Shown piece after piece: positions 4,952 to 14,504 of a stretch of DNA of 64,000 nt. The stretch's first letter is position 1. Each line of letters starts with the position of its first letter. The DNA is taken from positions 1-64,000 of the forward strand of contig JBFWVL010000003.1 in the NCBI GenBank assembly GCA_050246755.1, in the 5' to 3' direction. The translations under genes were made by a program, and so were the position numbers. The stretch comes from Bacteriovoracia bacterium (GTDB taxonomy: Bacteria > Bdellovibrionota > UBA1018 > CAIPTA01). Below the pieces are notes generated by a model, which saw nothing but the letters and a program-made list of their open reading frames with translations, was not told the origin of the DNA and ran no database searches.

Positions 4952-5587
4952 CTACGCAAAAATTTCTAGCATCTGCTCTTCTTTGAGCACTTTCTGCACG
5001 GCCGGGCGGGCCAGCACGCGTTTCATGAATGCCTGCACGTTTTTGTACTGCTTGGTATCTATCTCCACGAATTTGGTGAAGCCGAGGTTGATGAAGAGCA
5101 GGCAGTCCGCGATCGTGAAGTTTTTGCCGGTAATAAAATCCTTACCCGCCAGATTTTTTTCGATGTGCTCGAGGTAGGCATGAATATCGGTCAGCGTTTT
5201 CGCCTTGATCTCAGCTTTGGCATCATCCGCAACCATCCATTTGCCGCGAATGCGAAAGAGCGGGGCGAAAGATTTTTGAAAATCCGAGCTGCAGAACGAG
5301 AGCCAACTCATAGTCTCGGCGCGCTCCACTGAGCCGGGGGAGGCGAGGAGCTTCGCTTGCGGGCTATTGTCGGCGATGTATTCCATGATCGCGATCGTTT
5401 GGGTGATGGGCTTTCCGTCGATGGTAATGGCGGGAACCGCGTTAAGCGGATTCACCTTTAAGAGTTCGTCCACGTTCACGTTTCTGCTCCAGCTCACCTC
5501 CACGGGAGTGAATGCCAGGCCCGATTCTACGAGCGCGATGTGAGTGGCGGTGGAGCCGGTTACGGTGGAGTAATAAAATTTCAGCAT
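4952..5587 (-). CDS. Glutathione S-transferase (beta/GstA-like)
   Basis: NPLNAVPAI, ITQTIAIMEYI, FTIADCLLF, RVLARPAVQ. Confidence 0.93.
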   Translation of the reverse strand: MLKFYYSTVTGSTATHIALVESGLAFTPVEVSWSRNVNVDELLKVNPLNAVPAITIDGKPITQTIAIMEYIADNSPQAKLLASPGSVERAETMSWLSFCSSDFQKSFAPLFRIRGKWMVADDAKAEIKAKTLTDIHAYLEHIEKNLAGKDFITGKNFTIADCLLFINLGFTKFVEIDTKQYKNVQAFMKRVLARPAVQKVLKEEQMLEIFA

Positions 5588-5692
5588 TGGGATTCCTCAG
5601 ATTTGTTTAGGTTCTCAAGCTATCACGGGCGGGAGAATGGCGGATTGCGTCGAATGCTGACTTCACCTTTCTCTTCCGCTATAGTTCTCGCT

Positions 5693-6877
5693 ATGGACAT
5701 GAGCTTTCATCTCTGGCTCGAATACGTGATTCGATTCTCGCACTTGGTGGCCGGCGTGGCCTGGATCGGAAGCTCGTTCTATTTCATCTGGATGGATTCC
5801 AGTTTCGAAAGCCCCGAGACGGCGCGACGTAACGTGGAGGGAGAGCTCTTCATGGTGCACGGCGGTTTCTACTACCAGGTGGAAAAGCGCAAGATTTTTC
5901 CGGGGGAACTTCCCAAGGTGCTGCACTGGTTTAAGTGGGAGGCTACCCTTACGGTATTTACCGGCTTCCTTCTCCTGTTCGTTCTCTATTATTTGCGGGG
6001 CGCGAGTTTGCTGATCGACGCGCAAGTATACCCGCTCACGCAGTGGCAGGCGATTGGGTATAGCTTCGGCATCATCGTGGGCTCTTGGTTTCTTTACGAT
6101 CTGATGTGGAATGCCAAATTAGTCCCTAGCAAAGCGGTCAGCACGGTTCTTTCGGTTTTCTTTTTTACCGGCCTCATCTATGGGCTCACGCATCTTTTCA
6201 GCGGGCGCGGAGCTTTTATTCTGGCCGGCGCGGTGATGGGTACGATGATGGTGCTGAACGTGTGGGTGAGAATTTTGCCGGGGCAGGCGAAGATGATCCG
6301 CGAAGCACAGGCGGGCCAGGTGCCGGATTATTCCGTGAGCCTGAAATCCAAAACTCGTTCGGTACACAATACGTATTTTATATTTCCGGTGCTATTCATC
6401 ATGCTCAGCAACCACTATCCGGTGGTGTATTCGCATCCTCTGAATTGGCTGCTGCTGATTATCCTCGGCGTATCGGGTGCGCTCACGCGTCACGCGATGG
6501 TAACGAAGAGCCCCGTGCAGCGCTGGACTTTGTTGCCGGCCGCGATCGGTTTGGGGGCGCTAGTGATGATGACGGGAGCGGAGAAGCACTCGGAGCCCGC
6601 CGGGCCTAAAGTGGAGTTTGCCCAATTGCATGGGATCATGGAGAACCGCTGTTTGGCTTGTCATAGCAGTCATCCTACGGATGATGTTTGGAAAACGGCT
6701 CCGAATGGCGTGGTGCTCGAGAGCGAGGCACAGGTTCGTGCGAAGGCGAACCTGATTCACCTCCACGTGGTGATCGCCAAATCGATGCCGCTCGGGAACA
6801 AGACGAATATGACCGAAGAAGAACGTGCGGTATTTGCTAAATGGCTGAAACAAGAAGCCTTGGTTCAGCCATTTTAG
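5693..6877 (+). CDS. puuD: Urate hydroxylase PuuD (membrane domain plus C-terminal cytochrome c)
   Basis: HLVAGVAWIGSSFYFIWMD, VHGGFYY, LHWFKWEA, RSVHNTYF, MLSNHYP; heme motif CLACH; MPLGNKTNMT. Lies in a urate-pathway context. Confidence 0.93.
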   Translation: MDMSFHLWLEYVIRFSHLVAGVAWIGSSFYFIWMDSSFESPETARRNVEGELFMVHGGFYYQVEKRKIFPGELPKVLHWFKWEATLTVFTGFLLLFVLYYLRGASLLIDAQVYPLTQWQAIGYSFGIIVGSWFLYDLMWNAKLVPSKAVSTVLSVFFFTGLIYGLTHLFSGRGAFILAGAVMGTMMVLNVWVRILPGQAKMIREAQAGQVPDYSVSLKSKTRSVHNTYFIFPVLFIMLSNHYPVVYSHPLNWLLLIILGVSGALTRHAMVTKSPVQRWTLLPAAIGLGALVMMTGAEKHSEPAGPKVEFAQLHGIMENRCLACHSSHPTDDVWKTAPNGVVLESEAQVRAKANLIHLHVVIAKSMPLGNKTNMTEEERAVFAKWLKQEALVQPF

Positions 6878-6890
6878 TTTTTCGGAATAA

Positions 6891-7259
6891 CTAACGAACG
6901 GTGCAGTTGGTGGCAATGGAGATATCGCCTTGTTCGCCGCTAGCGTCTACACTGCCGGAATAGATTCCGCGGCCGGCGTAGTTCGTGTTCAAAATAATTT
7001 TTCCGTTGGAGTCCTGGGCGGTGAAGTGCAAGCTCTGGCCCGTAACGAAGCGGCTGCTCGTCACGCGCATATTGAGCTTCTTCAAAACTTCCGCGTCTTT
7101 TGAGATTACCACGCTGGCCCGGCTGGTGAATCGGGCGCCCGCCATTTTCGCGCGTAGCAGAAGATTATAGCCCATAATGCTTCCGGTGCAGGTGAGCTGG
7201 CTGGCTTGTGCGGCCCCGCTCAGTAAAATAGAACCCAGGATAAACGCAGTTTTTACCAT
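6891..7259 (-). CDS. Small secreted beta-rich protein with terminal cysteines
   Basis: GGAGG RBS, signal peptide ending AAQA, LTC at the mature N-terminus and CTVR at the C-terminus. Confidence 0.75.
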   Translation of the reverse strand: MVKTAFILGSILLSGAAQASQLTCTGSIMGYNLLLRAKMAGARFTSRASVVISKDAEVLKKLNMRVTSSRFVTGQSLHFTAQDSNGKIILNTNYAGRGIYSGSVDASGEQGDISIATNCTVR

Positions 7260-7369
7260 GTAACCTCCAAATGTTTTCAACCCTATAGTTAGGGTATATA
7301 GAATAGTTTTAATTTTCTACAAGAACGGTTTAGCCGCAGCAGCTGACACCGCAGCGGAGAAGCGCTGCG

Positions 7370-8375
7370 TTAGGCGAAGATCCGGATGCGATTGATGCCG
7401 CCGTCGGGGTAAGTTTTCACTTGAACGGCGGTGAAAATTTCCGCGTGGGGGAAATGAAATTCCTGCCGATTCCCCGCAAAGGCCTTGGCCTTCGTTTTCG
7501 GCACTAGCTCGATCCATTTATTCCCGCTGAGGCCATGCAGGCTTACATAGAGGGGATTATTGTTCACGAAAAAAGTGTAATCGAGCTCCACGCGGCCGAT
7601 CTGGGTGGGAGCGGCGAGCTCGATGACTACCTCTTCGTGATGGCCTGGATCGCGGGAGCGCGAAGATTCCATTCCGTCGAACATATGAATTGGCGGGTAG
7701 GGGGAGATTACCTGGGCCGCGGGGCCGTAGTGTTCATTGCTGGCGCTCACTAGCTTGGCGCCGAAGGCTTGGCTGGCGAAATCGATCTCGGCGCCGGAAT
7801 GGAAGTTCTTTCTCTTTTCTTCGGCCGAAAACGTATAGGGAATGGTTAGAGGTTTGCGCGTTTTCGGAATGGCTTCGTCAAAACGGAGGCTCTTGGCGCC
7901 CGGGGAAAAATTCCTGGCTTCGGATTCGGGAAGGTCTTGGTAGAGCCCGAGGCGGGAGAAGCCCCCGTCCGGGAACATCTCCACACGAATTTGATCGTAC
8001 ACGGTGGTATTCAAGCCGAGGTCGAAGCGCAGTAGCGAATGGCCTTGCAGAGGAGTTTTCGGCAGGATTTCCCGCCAGGTGCCATGGCTGAGCCCAAAGA
8101 GGGCCACGAACTCGGCTTGATTTCCATCATGGAACTTCGTGGAGAGCGAAGCGTAGCGGATGGAGGACGGCTTCCTCAGTTCCAGCACCAGCGTTTCTTT
8201 GCCGAGCGGGTTATGGCGAGCCGACTCCCAGCTATCCATGACCTTACCCTGATCGCAGAAAAGCTCGGGATTAAATAGGGGGAGGTGGGGGGAGATCAAG
8301 TTCTCGGCGCGCGCGAACTTTTGGTTGGTGCAGGAGAGAATCTTCGCGCCCACCAGAATATTTCGGGAAGCGAGG
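7370..8375 (-). other. Allantoicase domain (two repeats) of the fusion
   Basis: GKVMDSWESAR...FPDGGFSRL and SNEHYG...FDGMESSRSRDPGH...YPDGGINRIR. Boundaries approximate. Confidence 0.88.
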
Positions 8376-11300
8376 GGATCCGGAGGGCCCTTTTCAGGAA
8401 TCTCCGCTGGCAGCGTGGGAAGGAAGGCGTCGAAGAGTAAGGTTTTGTAGCCCAGGTTCACGATCTCTTCTTGTTTCAGATTTTGCGGAGAAAATTTTTC
8501 CTGGAACTTGGTGAAATCAATTCCCTGAATGCGGAGCGTGCGCAAAATTTCCTGGGCGGCTTCGGCGATGAAAGGCACCGCACGATTATCGCCGTTGGCG
8601 AGAATCACGAGGCCCTTGCCTTGGTCTGGCCCGAAGAAACAATGGAGGTAGAGGGCACGGAAACCTTCGTTGGCACCCTGGTGGAGCGCGAATTTGTTGG
8701 GGCCGGCTTCCGCCACGAACACGCCGAGGCCCATCTCGCAGCCCATGAAGGCGCGGCAGCCTTTGTCGGAGCCGTGGAGCATGCGCACGGCCGTATCGTG
8801 GGAAATGCCTTCGCCGCCGTCTAGCTCATGGTAAGCCTCGCTGAGGTTGCGCAGGAAGTGCGCTATATCGCTCGCGGTGCCGAAAGCGCCGGCGGTGAAA
8901 CCAGGAAAGTGGAGGCGGCCTCCGGGAACTTCGTCTCCTGAATCCAGGTAGCCCGTGGCGGAGGGGGACGAGTAATGAAACGTAGTATTTTCGAGGCCAA
9001 ATAATTCCGAGGTATTTACGCCGAGCGATTTGAGGAGATGCTCCACCACCAAGAAACCGCCGCCGGAGTAATGAAATTCCTTTCCGGGCTCGGCCAAGAT
9101 TTTGATTTTCTCGTAGCCATGCTTGCCATCCATTAATTCCAGCAAATCCGGCATTTCCCGTGTGGGAGGCAGGCCCTTCACGTAATGCATGTTCAGGGCG
9201 GAGTGGCCGAGGAGATGCTCGAGAGTAACCTGTTCCGCCCAATTTTTGTGGGGAGAAGAGAGGCGAAAGGGTGATTTAGCGCGCGCGAAAAGCTCGTTTA
9301 CCGGAGTGGCAAGGGGGATATTCAATTCGCGGAAGGCCTCGAGGGCGAGGGCGGCGGCAAAAGTTTTGCTGAGCGAGGCAATTTCGAATCTGGTTTCTTT
9401 TGTTACGGGGATCCCTTTTTTACTTTCGCCATAGCTAAGAGACTGGGTATTGCCGTGAAAATTTAGGGCCACGCCGGCGCCCATAATTCCGTATTTTACC
9501 CGCAAGGACTCAATTTTTTCTTTGAGCTGGTTGAGGGGCTGCGCGGTCATTCGCTTTCGCGTGATCTCCCAGAGGGCGGAACGGGCATTTTCCTGCTCTT
9601 GATCAGGAGAATTGTTGACCCTGGTGGCGAGCGATTCCAGCAATTCTTTCGCGGATTTTCCCTGCGCCGAGATGAGGAACTTAAAGCCGAATTTTTTGCA
9701 GTACGTTTCCCCTAAGGCGCGCAGCTCTTCCTGCACGCTTTCTTCGCCGGCCAGCGCCTGGGCCTGTTCGGCGGCGGCCTTGGCATCGAGGGTTTTTTTG
9801 CTCTGGCCGATATCTCCGTGGAAAGAGGCGGCGGCGAGAATTTCGGCCAGTGAAAAAGAGCGCACGATCCGTTCGGCTTCACCGAAGTCTTCCGCCACCA
9901 GCAGGGCCATGTCTTCAGCGAATCGTTCCGATCCGCAGATTTCAAAGTAATGCTCGAAGCGTTGCACGTATTCGGGCAGCGCGAATTTTCCCGGATCCAG
10001 CTCATTGGCTTTCGCCCACGGGTCTTGGGCGGAGCGAATGGCATCCACGGTAAAGGGCATCAGCAGTTCCGTGGCGAATTCCACGGGCCTTTCGGCCGTC
10101 ATCAGCTGGAGCATGATGCGCATTGAAATCGGGTACCAACGTGCGGTGCGCTCGTCCCACTTCACCTGCACGATCTTTTTTCCGTTGGAGAGATCCCGGC
10201 GGATGAAGTTCATTTCTTCGTGCGCGATGCAGATAAATTCTTCGAGGGAGAAGCGGCCGTGGGCGAGCTCGGCCCAGACCTCCCAGCGTGACCTTTCGGC
10301 GGTGGCCAGATCGTCCATCACGCGCACCGGGATGCCGTCGATGATGGTGGGGAGGGCCACGCAGCCATTCCCCGAGAGCCAGTCGGTTAGGTACTGCAGC
10401 GACTGAAACACGTTGTAGCGGATTTCATCGGGGTGATTATTGGGAATGAAGTCCGACTCCTTGATGTCGGCTACGATCAATGAGCGCACGTAGCTGGGAT
10501 TATCGGTGTCCAGGCCCTCAATATCGGGACCGGAAATAAAGCCCAAAATTTCTTTATGGTATTTTTCATCGAGCAGGGAAGTGACTAAACTCGTGAGCTT
10601 CGATCCGTCGCCCGCTATTTTTTGTTTCCAGGCTTCCACCAAAGCTAGGCCCAGGCGCACGAAATCGGGGTGTGCTACCCAAAATCCCGTCAGGTTCCGC
10701 TTCATCTGGGTGATCACGTCTTTGAGGTAGCCCTTCAGCGTGATTTGCAGCGAATCATGCCCCTGGGCGGGAAGGATTCCGTACATTCCCCCCACCTTGA
10801 TGCCGCCGCGGGATCCTACCGCTTCCGCCAGGAGATTATGGGAAGCCTTAATGTACTTGATCACGATATTCGGATCGGCCTTCACGGGGATGCGGTAGTT
10901 GGCGTCGTTCTTAAAGAGCCGCGCGGTGGAGGCAAGGTAGTCGTGCCAGCCCAGCGAGGCCCCAGCGAAGTAAGGGTACAGAGCATCCATGATCTCGTGC
11001 GCTCGCAGAATGGCGCGAGGATTTTCGAGCACGATCATGAGGCGCACGCTGCCCGGCCGGTACGTATGGTGCTGGGCCTGGATCATGCGCTCCGCCGTGG
11101 CGATCATCAGGTGGATATACGCGGCCTCTTCCTCGTTCTCGAGCTTGGGGACGTAAAAAACGAGAGCCCGCGGGTTATTCCAATTACGGAAGAGGTGGAG
11201 CGCGAAATCATAGAGGTGAAGGGGGAGGGGATTTGCTTGGTAGAAAAGAAAATTGGAAGGCAGAGCCAATCCCGGAAATCTTTTTATCGGCAGGGCGAGA

Positions 11301-11989
11301 TGATCAGCCGCCAGCTCGTAGTTTTTTGTCCCCTCGCTTAATGAAAGCGTGCCTTCAAAGCAGCCGGTGAGATTTACGGCGGCGTCCACGAGATCGGCAC
11401 GGAGCGGGGTCTTGGAGTCTTCGTCGTCGGCCCCCCACATGGGAGAGCCAGCGCTGGACGAAGCCAATAGCTCGGCCACGATCGCGGGCTCGGTGGGCAA
11501 TTTGCGGTGGTAGGAATTCATCGCATTGATCGCCATTTTCGCGGAATCGGGCGGGCCGAAAAGCGTTACGTGTGGGCCCATAAGAAATTCCGGAAGAGGC
11601 GCTACCTTCGCCCCGCCTTGACGGCAGTAATTTTTATTTTTCGGCCCGATCACAATGCGACCCTTCGCGTCTTCAAGGCCGAGCACGGTTTGGTAGTCGG
11701 GGCTCAGCCAGTCGCGGCGCAAGCTTTCATTGAAGGCATGGCAGGCGGTCACTCGTTCATCAATGAATTTACGGTCGAGGATGCGCTGGCGCAGAACTTT
11801 GGCGAGCGTCGGCTTGATTTCTTCGTAGAGCGCGACCAAAAACTTTAGAGACTCCTCGGTTTCGAGCCCGCCGCCCTCTCCCACCTGCGCTAGGCCTTCC
11901 ACGCCCTTTACGGCGCGAGCCTCGGCCAGCAATGCTTTCAGCAAGTTCGGCGAAATATAGTCGTGGTAGTAGGGGATCTCGAAGCTCAC
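7370..11989 (-). CDS. Four-domain purine-catabolism fusion: malate synthase / OHCU decarboxylase / beta-lactamase-fold serine hydrolase / allantoicase
   Basis: Single uninterrupted 1539-aa ORF with a GTG start 5 nt after the uraH stop; domain motifs are listed in the sub-features. Confidence 0.9.
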   Translation of the reverse strand: MSFEIPYYHDYISPNLLKALLAEARAVKGVEGLAQVGEGGGLETEESLKFLVALYEEIKPTLAKVLRQRILDRKFIDERVTACHAFNESLRRDWLSPDYQTVLGLEDAKGRIVIGPKNKNYCRQGGAKVAPLPEFLMGPHVTLFGPPDSAKMAINAMNSYHRKLPTEPAIVAELLASSSAGSPMWGADDEDSKTPLRADLVDAAVNLTGCFEGTLSLSEGTKNYELAADHLALPIKRFPGLALPSNFLFYQANPLPLHLYDFALHLFRNWNNPRALVFYVPKLENEEEAAYIHLMIATAERMIQAQHHTYRPGSVRLMIVLENPRAILRAHEIMDALYPYFAGASLGWHDYLASTARLFKNDANYRIPVKADPNIVIKYIKASHNLLAEAVGSRGGIKVGGMYGILPAQGHDSLQITLKGYLKDVITQMKRNLTGFWVAHPDFVRLGLALVEAWKQKIAGDGSKLTSLVTSLLDEKYHKEILGFISGPDIEGLDTDNPSYVRSLIVADIKESDFIPNNHPDEIRYNVFQSLQYLTDWLSGNGCVALPTIIDGIPVRVMDDLATAERSRWEVWAELAHGRFSLEEFICIAHEEMNFIRRDLSNGKKIVQVKWDERTARWYPISMRIMLQLMTAERPVEFATELLMPFTVDAIRSAQDPWAKANELDPGKFALPEYVQRFEHYFEICGSERFAEDMALLVAEDFGEAERIVRSFSLAEILAAASFHGDIGQSKKTLDAKAAAEQAQALAGEESVQEELRALGETYCKKFGFKFLISAQGKSAKELLESLATRVNNSPDQEQENARSALWEITRKRMTAQPLNQLKEKIESLRVKYGIMGAGVALNFHGNTQSLSYGESKKGIPVTKETRFEIASLSKTFAAALALEAFRELNIPLATPVNELFARAKSPFRLSSPHKNWAEQVTLEHLLGHSALNMHYVKGLPPTREMPDLLELMDGKHGYEKIKILAEPGKEFHYSGGGFLVVEHLLKSLGVNTSELFGLENTTFHYSSPSATGYLDSGDEVPGGRLHFPGFTAGAFGTASDIAHFLRNLSEAYHELDGGEGISHDTAVRMLHGSDKGCRAFMGCEMGLGVFVAEAGPNKFALHQGANEGFRALYLHCFFGPDQGKGLVILANGDNRAVPFIAEAAQEILRTLRIQGIDFTKFQEKFSPQNLKQEEIVNLGYKTLLFDAFLPTLPAEIPEKGPPDPLASRNILVGAKILSCTNQKFARAENLISPHLPLFNPELFCDQGKVMDSWESARHNPLGKETLVLELRKPSSIRYASLSTKFHDGNQAEFVALFGLSHGTWREILPKTPLQGHSLLRFDLGLNTTVYDQIRVEMFPDGGFSRLGLYQDLPESEARNFSPGAKSLRFDEAIPKTRKPLTIPYTFSAEEKRKNFHSGAEIDFASQAFGAKLVSASNEHYGPAAQVISPYPPIHMFDGMESSRSRDPGHHEEVVIELAAPTQIGRVELDYTFFVNNNPLYVSLHGLSGNKWIELVPKTKAKAFAGNRQEFHFPHAEIFTAVQVKTYPDGGINRIRIFA
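8525..9530 (-). other. Serine hydrolase domain of the beta-lactamase class C/AmpC superfamily
   Basis: FEIAS872LSK875 (SxxK), LLGHSA, FHY974SGGGF, H1103QGANEGF. Boundaries approximate. Confidence 0.88.
9545..9975 (-). other. OHCU decarboxylase (UraD) domain of the fusion
   Basis: CGSERF, H724GDIG, AEQA, YCKKFGFKFLISAQGKS, EITRKRM. Confidence 0.88.
10050..11989 (-). other. Malate synthase A-like domain of the fusion
   Basis: GP...KMAINAMN, ADDEDS, R237, DFALHLF, YVPKLE, VLEN, GWHDY, GGM, GFWVAHP, WLSGNGCV, MDD560LATAERSR. Confidence 0.88.
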
Positions 11990-11994
11990 AAAAA

Positions 11995-12318
11995 CTAGCT
12001 GCCCCGGTAGGTGGAATACCCGTAGGGATTGAGGAGAAGGGGCACGTGGTATTTCCGTTTCGTATCGGAAATTTCAAAATGCACGGGCACGATGGTAAAG
12101 AAGGGTTTCACGTTATTTTTCTTAAAGTAATCGTCCACGAAAAATTGTAGACGATAGCCACCGGCTTCTAGGGCGCAGTCGAAAGCGATGCGCCCATCGG
12201 CATTAGTTTTCTCGGTGGCGAGAATGTCCCAGGAACCGCCGTCTTTTTTCTCGAGCTGCACCGTAACTTGGGCGGCCGGGTTTCCGAGACTGGTATCGAG
12301 AATATGGGTGCTGATCAT
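11995..12318 (-). CDS. uraH: 5-hydroxyisourate hydrolase (transthyretin-like)
   Basis: ISTHILDT...G.PA, TNADGR, YHVPLLL, C-terminal YRGS. Confidence 0.97.
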   Translation of the reverse strand: MISTHILDTSLGNPAAQVTVQLEKKDGGSWDILATEKTNADGRIAFDCALEAGGYRLQFFVDDYFKKNNVKPFFTIVPVHFEISDTKRKYHVPLLLNPYGYSTYRGS

Positions 12319-12409
12319 GGGCTAAAGCATAGGGCTAGGTGGGCCTAAAGGCAAACCATGGCGCAACGTGACAACCCACCCAAATCTTGGATTCATGGTA
12401 TAAAGGAGC

Positions 12410-13147
12410 ATGGAAACCAAAACCTATCGGACCAACCTAAACTGTGGAAAATGCCTCGCCACCGTGACCCCCTTTCTCAACGGAGAAAATTCGATTGTAA
12501 GCTGGGAGCTGGATATTCAGGACCAGCGGAAACCACTGACGATCCGCGCGGAAAAGGTGAACGACGGCGCGGTGAGGAGTGCGGTAGAAAAGGCGGGCTT
12601 TAAAGTTTTCGAAGAAATAAAGCCTAAATCTTCCTCCCCGGTGGCTGCTTCGGTGCCTAATGCCCCCTCCCTGAAAACCTATTTTCCCCTGATCTTGATC
12701 TTCGCCTATATCGCAAGCGGCGTGGCGCTGCTCGCCTATCAAACCGGTGATAGGGAAACCGAAACCCTGATGCGCAATTTCATGGGCGGTTTCTTCCTGG
12801 TATTTTCTTTTTTCAAGTTGCTCAACGTAAAGGCATTCGCGGAGGCATACCAAACCTACGACGTCGTGGCTAAGGCCGTCCCAGCCTATGGATTCTTCTA
12901 TCCGTTTATCGAGCTCGGCTTAGGTATCGCGTACCTAGGAAATTTTTCACCGGTGGTGCTCAATTGGATCACGCTCGCGATAATGGGGGTGAGCACGATC
13001 GGCGTGGCGAAAGCTTTGTGGAAAAAGAATCGTATCGAATGCGCCTGTCTCGGCACCGTTTTTAAATTGCCGATGACGAAAGTGACGCTCTTCGAAGATC
13101 TTTTGATGGTGGCCATGGCCACCGTCATGCTGCTGCGGCATCAGTAG
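12410..13147 (+). CDS. HMA-domain / MauE-DoxX family membrane protein
   Basis: N-terminal NLNCGKC; TM region with FSFFKLL, YPFIEL, IECACLG; AAGGAG RBS. Confidence 0.85.
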   Translation: METKTYRTNLNCGKCLATVTPFLNGENSIVSWELDIQDQRKPLTIRAEKVNDGAVRSAVEKAGFKVFEEIKPKSSSPVAASVPNAPSLKTYFPLILIFAYIASGVALLAYQTGDRETETLMRNFMGGFFLVFSFFKLLNVKAFAEAYQTYDVVAKAVPAYGFFYPFIELGLGIAYLGNFSPVVLNWITLAIMGVSTIGVAKALWKKNRIECACLGTVFKLPMTKVTLFEDLLMVAMATVMLLRHQ

Positions 13148-13867
13148 TTACGCGCGGGGCCGCTTCTTCGGGCTCCACTGGCAGAATAGCTTGGGCCGGG
13201 CACCGTAGTCGATCTGCTGCTCCACCATTTGATCGAATACGTAGAGCAAATGATCGTGCTCGCGCTTACCTACATTGAATCCGCGGCTATCGCCCAGGAG
13301 ATCGATCGTGTGGTGGATGGCCTCCACCGTGGAGTGGCAATAGGGTTTGGGCTGGCGGCGTATACGAAACCGAGACGGTGCCGGCGGATCGAAGCAAATC
13401 TTGGGCAAACTCTGGAGATTTTTGCTCAGGCGCAGAATTTTCGGAGCGGTGAACCAGGTTCCGTCGATCACGAAAACCACGAGCGCCTTGGATTCCGGAA
13501 AAAGCGATCCGCGTTCTTTGGGCGAAAAGGTGCTGAGGTTCATGGAGTGTTCTCCCGGGTAGAGAATCACGCAGTGGTTGCGCCCGTCCTGCACGAGTTC
13601 GTTCACGCGGGCATGCCCGGTAAAATCGGTGCCGATGAGCATCTCGGAGCTCGTGAGCATTAAATGAGAAAGGCGGCCCGTACCAATGCGGTTCTGCGCC
13701 TCGCGGAGATGCGTCAAAATCACGAATTTAGTTTTGGGATCAAATGGCTTCAGATGGGCACAAATGCAGGTGACGGGGGAGCGTAGGCACTGGAGGCAGA
13801 GGCCCCGGTCCTCCACGGGTAATGGCGTAACCTTTTTTCGCTTCTTTAGGTAGTCGGCCATTCGCAT
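13148..13867 (-). CDS. DTW-domain tRNA-uridine aminocarboxypropyltransferase (TapT/YfiP-like)
   Basis: CxxC...CIC, H..E...GTGRL, IDGTW, HSTVEA. Start at 13867 or 13861. Confidence 0.88.
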   Translation of the reverse strand: MRMADYLKKRKKVTPLPVEDRGLCLQCLRSPVTCICAHLKPFDPKTKFVILTHLREAQNRIGTGRLSHLMLTSSEMLIGTDFTGHARVNELVQDGRNHCVILYPGEHSMNLSTFSPKERGSLFPESKALVVFVIDGTWFTAPKILRLSKNLQSLPKICFDPPAPSRFRIRRQPKPYCHSTVEAIHHTIDLLGDSRGFNVGKREHDHLLYVFDQMVEQQIDYGARPKLFCQWSPKKRPRA

Positions 13868-13919
13868 GGGGCCAGGTTCGCATAGATCCCAATATATTTT
13901 CCAGAAATTCGGCTCTAAG

Positions 13920-14504
13920 ATGGGGCCTGTGCCAGAAATACTCCCAGACCATCCCGCCGAACTCCTCGAGCGATTGAATCGCCTCATGAAGGGACCATTT
14001 GACTACGAATTTTCCAAGTACGTATACGTACCCCAGAGCACGAAGGACGACCGGGAATACCTGCGCGTGCCTTCATTGGAGGCTGCCGGAAAGGTAGATT
14101 CTTTATTGGGCAGCCTGAAGGCGCATCAGGAGCTAGCCCTGCATTCCCGTCTCTTTCGTGGATCCGAAGTATTGCATATTCCCATGCTGGATTTGGACCA
14201 GGCTTTTTCCGACACTCACCTCGCCGCGCTAAACGATCTGATGAGAGAATTCGGGGTTTCCGAATTTGCCGTCTACAATTCCGGAAGGTCGGCTCACGTG
14301 TATGGCTTAGGGTTATTGTCCGCGGAGCGCTTGAACCAATTTTTTGCCCGGGCCTTGCTTTTGAATTTGCCCGGAAAGAAGCCGATCGTGGATGCGCGTT
14401 GGATCGGCCACCGTCTCTACGCCGGTTATGGTTCTCTGCGATGGTCCTGCAATACGAAGCAGTATTTGGGCGCGCCGAAGGCGATCGGGATTTTTCGAAG
14501 CTGA
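13920..14504 (+). CDS. Stand-alone archaeo-eukaryotic primase (AEP)-like protein
   Basis: HIPMLDLD (DxD motif I), YNSGRSAHVYG (motif II), IVDARW...SLRW. Confidence 0.65.
   Translation: MGPVPEILPDHPAELLERLNRLMKGPFDYEFSKYVYVPQSTKDDREYLRVPSLEAAGKVDSLLGSLKAHQELALHSRLFRGSEVLHIPMLDLDQAFSDTHLAALNDLMREFGVSEFAVYNSGRSAHVYGLGLLSAERLNQFFARALLLNLPGKKPIVDARWIGHRLYAGYGSLRWSCNTKQYLGAPKAIGIFRS

Follow-up and report, generated by a model that had tools for sequence, protein, structure and literature searches.

How does a bacterium that is predicted to carry urate as far as ureidoglycolate open the ring of allantoin when no known allantoinase can be recognized in its genome? This question is raised by a urate-degradation locus in a 64,000-nucleotide stretch of DNA (hereafter the window; positions 1 to 64,000 of contig JBFWVL010000003.1, assembly GCA_050246755.1) from a Bacteriovoracia bacterium of the phylum Bdellovibrionota. 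At its centre is a gene for a single protein with four fused domains, in the order malate-synthase-like (MS-like), 2-oxo-4-hydroxy-4-carboxy-5-ureidoimidazoline (OHCU) decarboxylase (UraD), beta-lactamase/DD-peptidase-fold serine hydrolase (Bla) and allantoicase. Opening of the allantoin ring is the committed step of purine nitrogen recovery, and two enzyme folds have been described for it so far. We propose that the Bla domain, a PF00144 member spanning amino acids (aa) 815-1196, is probably the allantoinase that fills this gap. The preliminary description of the window had advanced the same idea, which is supported here by the gap itself, by the mutually exclusive occurrence of the domain and the known allantoinase AllB, by domain fusions and by conserved motifs, that is, by several independent lines of comparative genomics and not by biochemistry.

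A missing step in the urate pathway

The recognizable enzymes of the locus are predicted to convert urate to 5-hydroxyisourate (HIU), OHCU and (S)-allantoin, and then allantoate to ureidoglycolate. The intervening conversion of allantoin to allantoate has no recognizable enzyme. The same gap is seen in the source genome as a whole (3.55 Mb in 10 contigs, 95.7% complete), which encodes the urate oxidase PuuD, HIU hydrolase (HIUase), UraD and allantoicase. Searches of this genome yielded no AllB above the cut-off and no PuuE, ureidoglycolate lyase (PF04115), cofactor-less uricase or ATP-dependent hydantoinase (Hydantoinase_A). Its two best AllB-like genes are instead dihydroorotases (TIGR00857, 320 and 270 bits). 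Within the fusion protein, homology to AllB (TIGR03178) or PuuE (TIGR03212) was found neither among the six Pfam families matched nor among the 25 listed of its 41 NCBIfam matches, and the Pfam scan gave no match to PF04115.

Conserved features of the serine hydrolase domain

The Bla domain matches PF00144 with 80 bits (84.3 bits in the genome search), above the gathering cut-off of 27; the match spans aa 824-1144 and positions 3-321 of the 329 in the profile. It carries an SxxK motif, a Tyr in the second motif and a third motif of the K/H-[ST]-G type, with Q in the third motif where T or S is usual and with G following Y-S where N is usual. A script run on the translation located S872-x-x-K875, Y974-S-G and H1103-Q-G exactly where the preliminary description had placed them, and the Pfam order agrees with its picture of an internal domain, without an export signal of its own, between UraD and allantoicase. 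The span that it gave, 8525-9530, does cover the Pfam core (aa 821-1155) but stops short of the conserved domain, which continues to about aa 1196 (window position 8402), the same endpoint as in stand-alone homologues. The C-terminal end of the domain bears a helix-like motif, KQEEIVNxGxKxLxFDAF.

An alignment of 43 homologues, comprising bacterial fused and eukaryote-type stand-alone domains with 39-59% identity to that of the window, reveals S-L-S-K, H929, H935-Y936, Y974-S-G, H1103-Q, N1107 and G-F-R1111 as invariant in all 43 sequences (S58, K61, Y160-S-G and H289-Q in the numbering of the aligned homologues equal S872, K875, Y974-S-G and H1103-Q). When five architectures are compared, S, K, S-G, H1103, N1107, G, F and R1111 are still invariant and Y974 is present in at least 90% of the sequences.

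A profile search of the PDB with the Bla domain gave a best score of 58 bits. The closest solved structures are 2qz6, 6k8x, 2qmi, 1cef, 4gdn and 4y7p, and the enzymes matched are class C beta-lactamases, Pab87, the R61 DD-peptidase, Flp and alkaline D-peptidase. In the profile alignment, YSGGG falls on the class C Y-S-N and S872-L-S-K875 on the class C SxSK. The domain does not resemble a class C beta-lactamase by the NF033085 model (43.4 bits against a cut-off of 415, over aa 821-903 only, the part around SxxK), has YSG rather than YxN, and lies inside a larger protein. In a domain tree, a branch of 1.47 lies between the Bla clade and the PF00144 relatives closest to it; its support in the SH-like approximate likelihood-ratio test (SH-aLRT) is 100. 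Rooting this tree with an outgroup places the eukaryote-type sequences at the base as a grade and unites all bacterial copies in a single clade (support 100). The only other PF00144 gene of the source genome (G000:C3:196168-197178, + strand) is a 359-aa frame outside the window that matches the family with 123.5 bits. It was missed at E <= 1e-20 with the Bla domain as query, for which the fusion was the sole match in the genome.

Distribution relative to known allantoinases

A sample of 301 genomes from the source phylum contains 33 with the Bla domain. Allantoicase is encoded by 60 genomes, namely these 33 carriers and 27 others that have only a canonical stand-alone allantoicase. AllB exceeds its cut-off in 27 of the 60, which are 26 of the 27 non-carriers and one carrier (G270). 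In the remaining non-carrier (G163), AllB is broken across two contig ends, next to its allantoicase. Counting this gene, all 27 non-carriers have AllB, each time as the immediate neighbour of allantoicase on one contig, and 32 of the 33 carriers have neither known allantoinase. PuuE does not exceed its cut-off in any of the 60 genomes. AllB-like matches of 250-286 bits in other carriers represent a separate paralogue, since second matches in AllB-positive genomes lie in the same range.

The preliminary description had named routine occurrence of allB or puuE in carriers as grounds for giving up the allantoinase assignment. The pattern found is the opposite: AllB is present in 1 of 33 carriers (G270) and PuuE in none, and both are absent from four planctomycete metagenome-assembled genomes (MAGs) and Bdellovibrio sp. 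HCB337 (0/5 each) and from 50 further carrier genomes (0/50 each), a set of 55 that may overlap the 33. The Bla and AllB states alternate within families (f1, f4 and f21) and even genera (g1 and g13), and a genome of the same genus as the source (G215) is of the AllB type.

Both systems are found together only in G270 (L106:8383-10236, - strand, and L104:621-8728). Its first system consists of a 617-aa AllB-UraD fusion with HIUase. The second cluster holds PuuD, a 763-aa Bla-allantoicase protein, a class-V aminotransferase, a single-repeat allantoicase and a separate MS-like gene.

Shorter architectures and eukaryotic forms

A hidden Markov model search of 1.84 billion representative sequences recovered 981 proteins at E <= 1e-30, which fall into discrete length classes, and 19 multi-domain representatives were scanned with Pfam. 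Ten are Bla-allantoicase proteins (P0275, P0284, P0301, P0319, P0324, P0354, P0421, P0285, P0298 and P0322) and six have the form UraD-Bla-allantoicase (P0277, P0279, P0280, P0292, P0305 and P0310). One has all four domains (P0345), one joins Bla, ureidoglycolate lyase and allantoicase (P0315), and the last (P0355) is an unrelated triple-PF00144 protein. Bla thus immediately precedes allantoicase in 18 of the 19 proteins scanned, and in every one that includes UraD it follows that domain directly. The arrangement UraD, Bla, allantoicase matches the order of the pathway. A complete 979-aa ORF of this three-domain form occurs at locus L111, and a 1940-aa protein (P0120) has five modules, in which a cofactor-less uricase (PF01014) precedes MS-like, UraD, Bla and allantoicase. 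Two loci (L135 and L136) carry about 1 kb extra between the MS-like and UraD parts.

The fusion of UraD to AllB in G270, together with the NCBIfam model for PuuE, which is named uraD_N-term-dom, indicates that UraD recurrently fuses with an allantoinase. With the gap filled, with exclusivity towards the known forms outside G270 and with linkage to the adjoining steps, the Bla domain displays the genomic signature of isofunctional replacement.

P0315 is a EukProt transcript from the dinoflagellate Polykrikos kofoidii in which Bla is followed by PF04115 ureidoglycolate lyase and then by allantoicase. The encoded protein has intact motifs and SKL at its C-terminus. Its allantoicase is canonical (275 bits) and lies outside the divergent clade formed by 15 other Bla-linked allantoicases, which implies at least two separate joinings of Bla to allantoicase. 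The cluster of P0319 includes a 926-aa Bla-allantoicase protein of the copepod Oithona nana.

Stand-alone Bla proteins, 384-493 aa long, were found in EukProt, MMETSP and short contigs. The C-terminus is SKL or ARL in 4 of the 17 that were aligned, and it is SKL in the Bla-allantoicase protein P0354. We take these to be C-termini of the peroxisomal type, following the consensus of peroxisomal targeting signal 1. The link to purine degradation that the preliminary description anticipated for homologues beyond the four-domain fusion is thus seen both in the allantoicase fusions and in these termini. In a metagenome scan, Bla occurs alone in 39 of 80 loci. Eukaryote-type neighbours flank 6 of the 8 stand-alone or Bla-allantoicase loci examined; one of the others (L157) is bacterial, one (L159) is uninformative, and the context gives no functional signal. 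A eukaryotic origin of L157, a seawater contig, is ruled out by its extracytoplasmic function (ECF) sigma factor and anti-sigma factor neighbours. This locus (L157:3467-6519) has a Bla domain with an EF-hand pair, followed by two allantoicase repeats in shifted frames, and these shifts may be errors of a low-coverage contig.

Conservation of the four-domain fusion

The Bla domain as query recovered 404 long proteins. Among the 120 listed, 114 match all four Pfam families and the remaining six are shorter UraD-Bla-allantoicase forms. With the allantoicase part as query, PF00144 is present in 120 of 120 long proteins listed. When one genome of each species was scanned, 198 relatives were recovered, and the best 80 loci were compared. 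The four modules are colinear in 74 of these, the other six being interrupted by contig ends; an HIUase homologue lies immediately upstream of the fusion in 57, and a PuuD homologue lies near it in many related loci. The fusion is therefore a conserved gene rather than an assembly accident. Median identity over the 80 loci is 49% for the Bla domain and 50% for UraD and allantoicase, which suggests that the Bla domain is under purifying selection and conserved to the same degree as these two. In one genome (G107), the fusion is split into two frames (L107:4753-9194; ORFs of 712 and 729 aa) with the break within the UraD part, reflecting either a frameshift or an assembly error.

By their titles, carriers belong to the Bdellovibrionota (Bdellovibrio, Bacteriovorax, Oligoflexia and Halobacteriovoraceae), with a few from the Planctomycetota. 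Two isolates, Oligoflexus tunisiensis and Bdellovibrio sp. HCB337, have the fusion, which is annotated there merely as 'serine hydrolase'. Four loci from planctomycete-labelled MAGs (L038, L067, L093 and L099) carry the whole four-domain gene with HIUase divergently upstream, and PuuD was not found near the fusion in them. Planctomycete Bla domains nest within the Bdellovibrionota clade beside that of Bdellovibrio sp. HCB337 (support 98-99), which suggests that the megaenzyme reached the Planctomycetota by horizontal transfer.

Two alternative urate clusters

Genomes of the AllB type arrange their genes in the order PuuD-AllB-allantoicase-UraD-HIUase followed by DUF6986 (G215, G066 and G004), or by ureidoglycolate lyase (AllA, PF04115) in place of DUF6986 (G041). 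Carriers instead have PuuD and HIUase-[MS-like-UraD-Bla-allantoicase]. The two cluster types differ only in AllB versus Bla and in DUF6986 or AllA versus the MS-like domain. PuuD and HIUase are only 45-46% identical between the source genome (G000) and its AllB-type congener G215, and no synteny was found between the flanks of the two loci. The clusters are xenologous, each a whole alternative cassette. A simple in-place exchange of AllB for the Bla domain is ruled out by the non-syntenic flanks.

At the ureidoglycolate end, AllA is found in 3 of the 60 allantoicase genomes, all of the AllB type, and in none of the 33 carriers. DUF6986 occurs in 24 of the 60, which are exactly the AllB-type genomes without AllA, and again in no carrier. 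The MS-like domain is present in all 33 carriers, 12 of which also have a canonical malate synthase (258-370 bits). AllA, DUF6986 and the MS-like domain are thus mutually exclusive (3, 24 and 33 of 60 genomes). Because the ureidoglycolate/glyoxylate end has its own exclusive trio, the serine hydrolase is left opposite AllB.

DUF6986 is accordingly a candidate replacement for ureidoglycolate lyase, and full-text searches of the literature found no mention of it. Its members weakly match the same PF01274 and PF03328 core as the MS-like domain. A direct BLASTP comparison of the two gave no significant match (E = 1.5), and these weak common matches are all that hints at a kinship between them. We propose that the MS-like domain might convert glyoxylate (with acetyl-CoA) to malate, handle ureidoglycolate, or both. 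There is a published precedent for malate synthase as the closing step of purine breakdown (PMC6320678).

Weighing the allantoinase assignment

Several observations weigh against the allantoinase assignment. PF00144 enzymes are not known to open hydantoins. Bla and MS-like domains always co-occur in the phylum sample, and since the clusters are xenologous, the phyletic data alone cannot tell which domain replaces AllB; the assignment to Bla is made because of fold chemistry and the shorter architectures. The counts derive from related genomes that are not independent, carriers are mostly MAGs, and the supplementary carriers may in part repeat the original ones. G270, which has AllB as well as a Bla-allantoicase gene, demonstrates that exclusivity is not absolute. 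Finally, 15 of 16 Bla-linked allantoicases fall in one clade on a branch of 3.71 (SH-aLRT 100). Its members, including the window's own (7373-8389), P0275, P0211, P0239 and others, score 60-100 bits per repeat compared with 150-190 for canonical repeats. With so divergent a partner, and with all four domains of the fusion below their NCBIfam equivalog cut-offs, a modified substrate is conceivable.

A rival explanation is that the Bla domain hydrolyses another amide or ester of the pathway or of its side products, and that the real allantoinase is encoded elsewhere and has escaped recognition. The substrate might then be (R)-allantoin, oxalurate, one of the racemic products into which HIU or OHCU breaks down, or a carbamoylated intermediate made by the divergent allantoicase-like domain. 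The divergence of the allantoicase clade, the sub-threshold scores of all fusion domains and the retention of AllB next to a Bla-allantoicase gene in the genome G270 fit this explanation. We nevertheless regard it as unlikely, given that it demands an additional, unrecognized allantoinase in about 90 genomes. Moreover, P0315, with its canonical allantoicase and ureidoglycolate lyase, needs just an allantoinase for a complete three-step route.

The preliminary description had offered ureidoglycolate hydrolysis as its alternative. In this case Bla would be an amidohydrolase or hydrolase that cleaves the linear ureido amide in what allantoicase produces, leaving the ring of allantoin to be opened by some other activity. 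The absence of PF04115 from the source genome and from all 33 carriers leaves room for such an activity, and a serine amidase could in principle be carbamoylated by a ureide. However, PF04115 is also missing from 24 of the 27 AllB-type genomes and so its absence is not carrier-specific; those 24 have DUF6986 and the carriers have the MS-like domain. P0315 has Bla and a genuine PF04115 domain on a single chain, and a Bla domain devoted to ureidoglycolate would leave allantoicase without a source of allantoate. Ureidoglycolate also decays spontaneously, and allantoicase has been reported to act on it as a side activity. Together, P0315 and the exclusive trio of AllA, DUF6986 and MS-like domain make this alternative quite improbable.

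It is scarcely credible that Bla plays no catalytic part and came along with the fusion as a scaffold or regulatory module: nothing specific favours it beyond the occasional degeneration of internal domains in megaproteins, and against it stand the S, K, Y-S-G and H residues that are invariant from bacteria to eukaryotic stand-alone forms, the very existence of such stand-alone proteins, and conservation equal to that of the catalytic UraD and allantoicase domains.

Proposed mechanism and implications

If the Bla domain is an allantoinase, we infer its substrate, an acyl-enzyme chemistry and any channelling between domains as follows. The enzyme would be independent of metal and act through a covalent intermediate. 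PuuD would oxidize urate to HIU, HIUase would convert HIU to OHCU, and the UraD domain would turn OHCU into (S)-allantoin and deliver it to the adjoining Bla domain. There, Ser872, with Lys875 and Tyr974 as acid/base, would attack the C4 carbonyl of the hydantoin ring, and opening of the N3-C4 amide would give an ester-linked allantoyl-enzyme. Water would then free allantoate beside the allantoicase domain, which would produce urea and ureidoglycolate, and the MS-like domain might dispose of the glyoxylate carbon. The invariant residues H929, H935, Y936, N1107 and R1111 are candidates to hold the ureido tail, the carbonyls of the ring and the carboxylate as it forms.

If, as seems likely, the allantoinase assignment holds, the Bla domain would extend a known fold to a new class of substrate and provide a known activity with a third, unrelated fold. 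A broader scenario would have this third independent allantoinase, an acyl-enzyme former with the penicillin-binding fold, operate in peroxisomes of diverse marine eukaryotes (the dinoflagellate and copepod fusions and the stand-alone forms ending in SKL). It would have been joined to allantoicase at least twice and built in the Bdellovibrionota into a three-to-five-enzyme urate-to-malate megaenzyme that was later transferred to the Planctomycetota, with DUF6986 replacing AllA. We advance this full combination tentatively, as it is somewhat more apt to fail in one of its parts than to hold throughout.

Should the assignment be correct, annotation gaps hidden under 'serine hydrolase' and 'malate synthase' would be closed in about 200 species genomes and many metagenomic proteins, and ureide catabolism would be scored differently in marine eukaryote transcriptomes and predatory bacteria. 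The chemistry of the beta-lactamase/penicillin-binding protein fold would then reach five-membered cyclic ureides. The fusions would be natural uricolytic enzymes of three to five steps, useful for structural study of substrate hand-over, and the way in which AllA, DUF6986 and the MS-like domain exclude one another provides a second testable assignment, for an uncharacterized family. The allantoinase function is directly testable in the existing isolates O. tunisiensis and Bdellovibrio sp. HCB337.

Features of the locus

The coordinates of the relevant features are given in Table 1. In the fusion protein, Pfam reports MS_TIM-barrel (aa 237-449), MS_C (521-640), OHCU_decarbox (705-814), PF00144 (824-1144) and allantoicase (from 1214) in this order. 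All four modules are also reported by NCBIfam, every one under its equivalog cut-off; for example, the MS-like domain scores 122-127 bits against TIGR01344 (cut-off 594.5) and the allantoicase domain 167 bits against TIGR02961 (cut-off 277.9). The UraD domain matches the solved OHCU decarboxylases 5uou, 2q37 and 3o7h at about 2e-8, and its alignment to them keeps H-x-x-I-G, EQ, FGFxFLIxAxGxS and ITxxR. When the MS-like domain is aligned to malate synthase A of E. coli (3cuz, 1.9e-31), the stretches for metal binding and catalysis (ADxEDS, PK..E, lEN, D-Y and MDDxATAE) coincide.

Table 1. Coordinates of the urate locus, of the motifs of the Bla domain and of DUF6986 genes in AllB-type clusters (window positions unless a locus is named)
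Feature	Coordinates	Strand	Remarks
PuuD-type membrane urate oxidase	5540..6877	+	Pfam Urate_ox_N, 311.8 bits; convergent to fusion gene
Four-domain fusion gene	7370..11989	-	single stop-free ORF, 1539 aa, GTG start
Allantoicase domain, two repeats	7373..8389	-	aa 1200-1539; PF03561, 165 bits
Bla domain (beta-lactamase/DD-peptidase-fold serine hydrolase), candidate allantoinase	8402..9547	-	aa 815-1196; PF00144, 80 bits
H1103-Q-G-A-N1107-E-G-F-R1111, third active-site motif	8657..8683	-	H1103 codon 8681-8683; clade-specific Asn and Arg
Y974-S-G, within invariant YSGGGF	9062..9070	-	Y974 codon 9068-9070
S872-L-S-K875, predicted nucleophile Ser and general-base Lys	9365..9376	-	codons S872 9374-9376, K875 9365-9367
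OHCU decarboxylase (UraD) domain	9548..10042	-	aa 650-814; PF09349, 79.8 bits
MS-like domain	10043..11989	-	aa 1-649; PF01274, 64.6 bits; PF20659, 37 bits
HIUase, 107 aa	11995..12318	-	PF00576, 121 bits, above cut-off
DUF6986 (PF22484), about 450 aa	L100:11872-13260 (G215); L101:11583-12977; L103:11588-12937		closes AllB-type urate clusters

HIUase ends in YRGS, and its stop codon lies 5 nucleotides ahead of the GTG start of the fusion. A scan of positions 6800-12700 for promoters and terminators gave no signal exceeding shuffled expectation. Just past the urate locus (13148-14504), the gene for a DTW-domain protein (13148-13987, - strand) overlaps the start of an ORF resembling archaeo-eukaryotic primases (13866-14504, + strand).

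Comparison with known systems

The available text of a 2026 review of uricolytic enzymes lists only Zn-dependent allantoinases and one metal-independent allantoinase, and the word 'lactamase' does not occur in it (PMC13751858). No link between allantoinase and the beta-lactamase fold appears in the available text of PMC13751858, PMC8919083 or PMC9244630, the peroxisomal inventories of the last two being in supplements outside the search; the 'beta-lactamase' mentioned in the available text of PMC8919083 is the metallo-protein LACTB2. More generally, no beta-lactamase-fold or serine allantoinase was found in full-text literature, with subscription journals and supplements outside the search. 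Consecutive uricolytic enzymes in one chain have a precedent in the HIUase-UraD fusions, or 'allantoin synthase', of plants, diatoms and bacteria described in the same review (PMC13751858). The present fusions differ in joining three to five activities, including a domain of previously unassigned function.

Among PF00144 enzymes (class C beta-lactamases, the Streptomyces R61 DD-peptidase, Pab87, Flp, alkaline D-peptidase and family VIII esterases), the Bla domain shares SxxK, the catalytic Tyr and H-x-G. In these enzymes the second motif is Tyr150/Asn152 in class C numbering, and the third is H-T-G in R61. The Bla domain differs in scoring at most 58 bits to any solved chain, in having YSGGG where class C has Y-x-N, in its clade-specific invariant H929, H935-Y936, N1107 and R1111, and in its extra C-terminal motif. 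It is also predicted to be cytoplasmic or peroxisomal and not exported. A chemical precedent for metal-free opening of a cyclic ureide ring by Ser and Lys is provided by cyanuric acid hydrolase and barbiturase, whose fold is unrelated.

The closest counterpart in reaction and genomic niche is AllB/DAL1 (TIGR03178), which in sister genomes lies beside allantoicase, UraD, HIUase and PuuD and which, like Bla, can be fused to UraD. AllB is otherwise unlike the Bla domain, as it belongs to the amidohydrolase superfamily with an unrelated TIM-barrel, a binuclear metal centre and a metal-activated water. PuuE/HpxB (TIGR03212) is metal-independent, has a polysaccharide-deacetylase fold without a serine nucleophile and is absent from all carrier genomes searched. 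Like the role proposed here for the Bla domain, it is a non-homologous replacement of AllB, with an NCBIfam model named as the N-terminal partner of UraD, and its original discovery reportedly followed the same logic of pathway hole and gene fusion.

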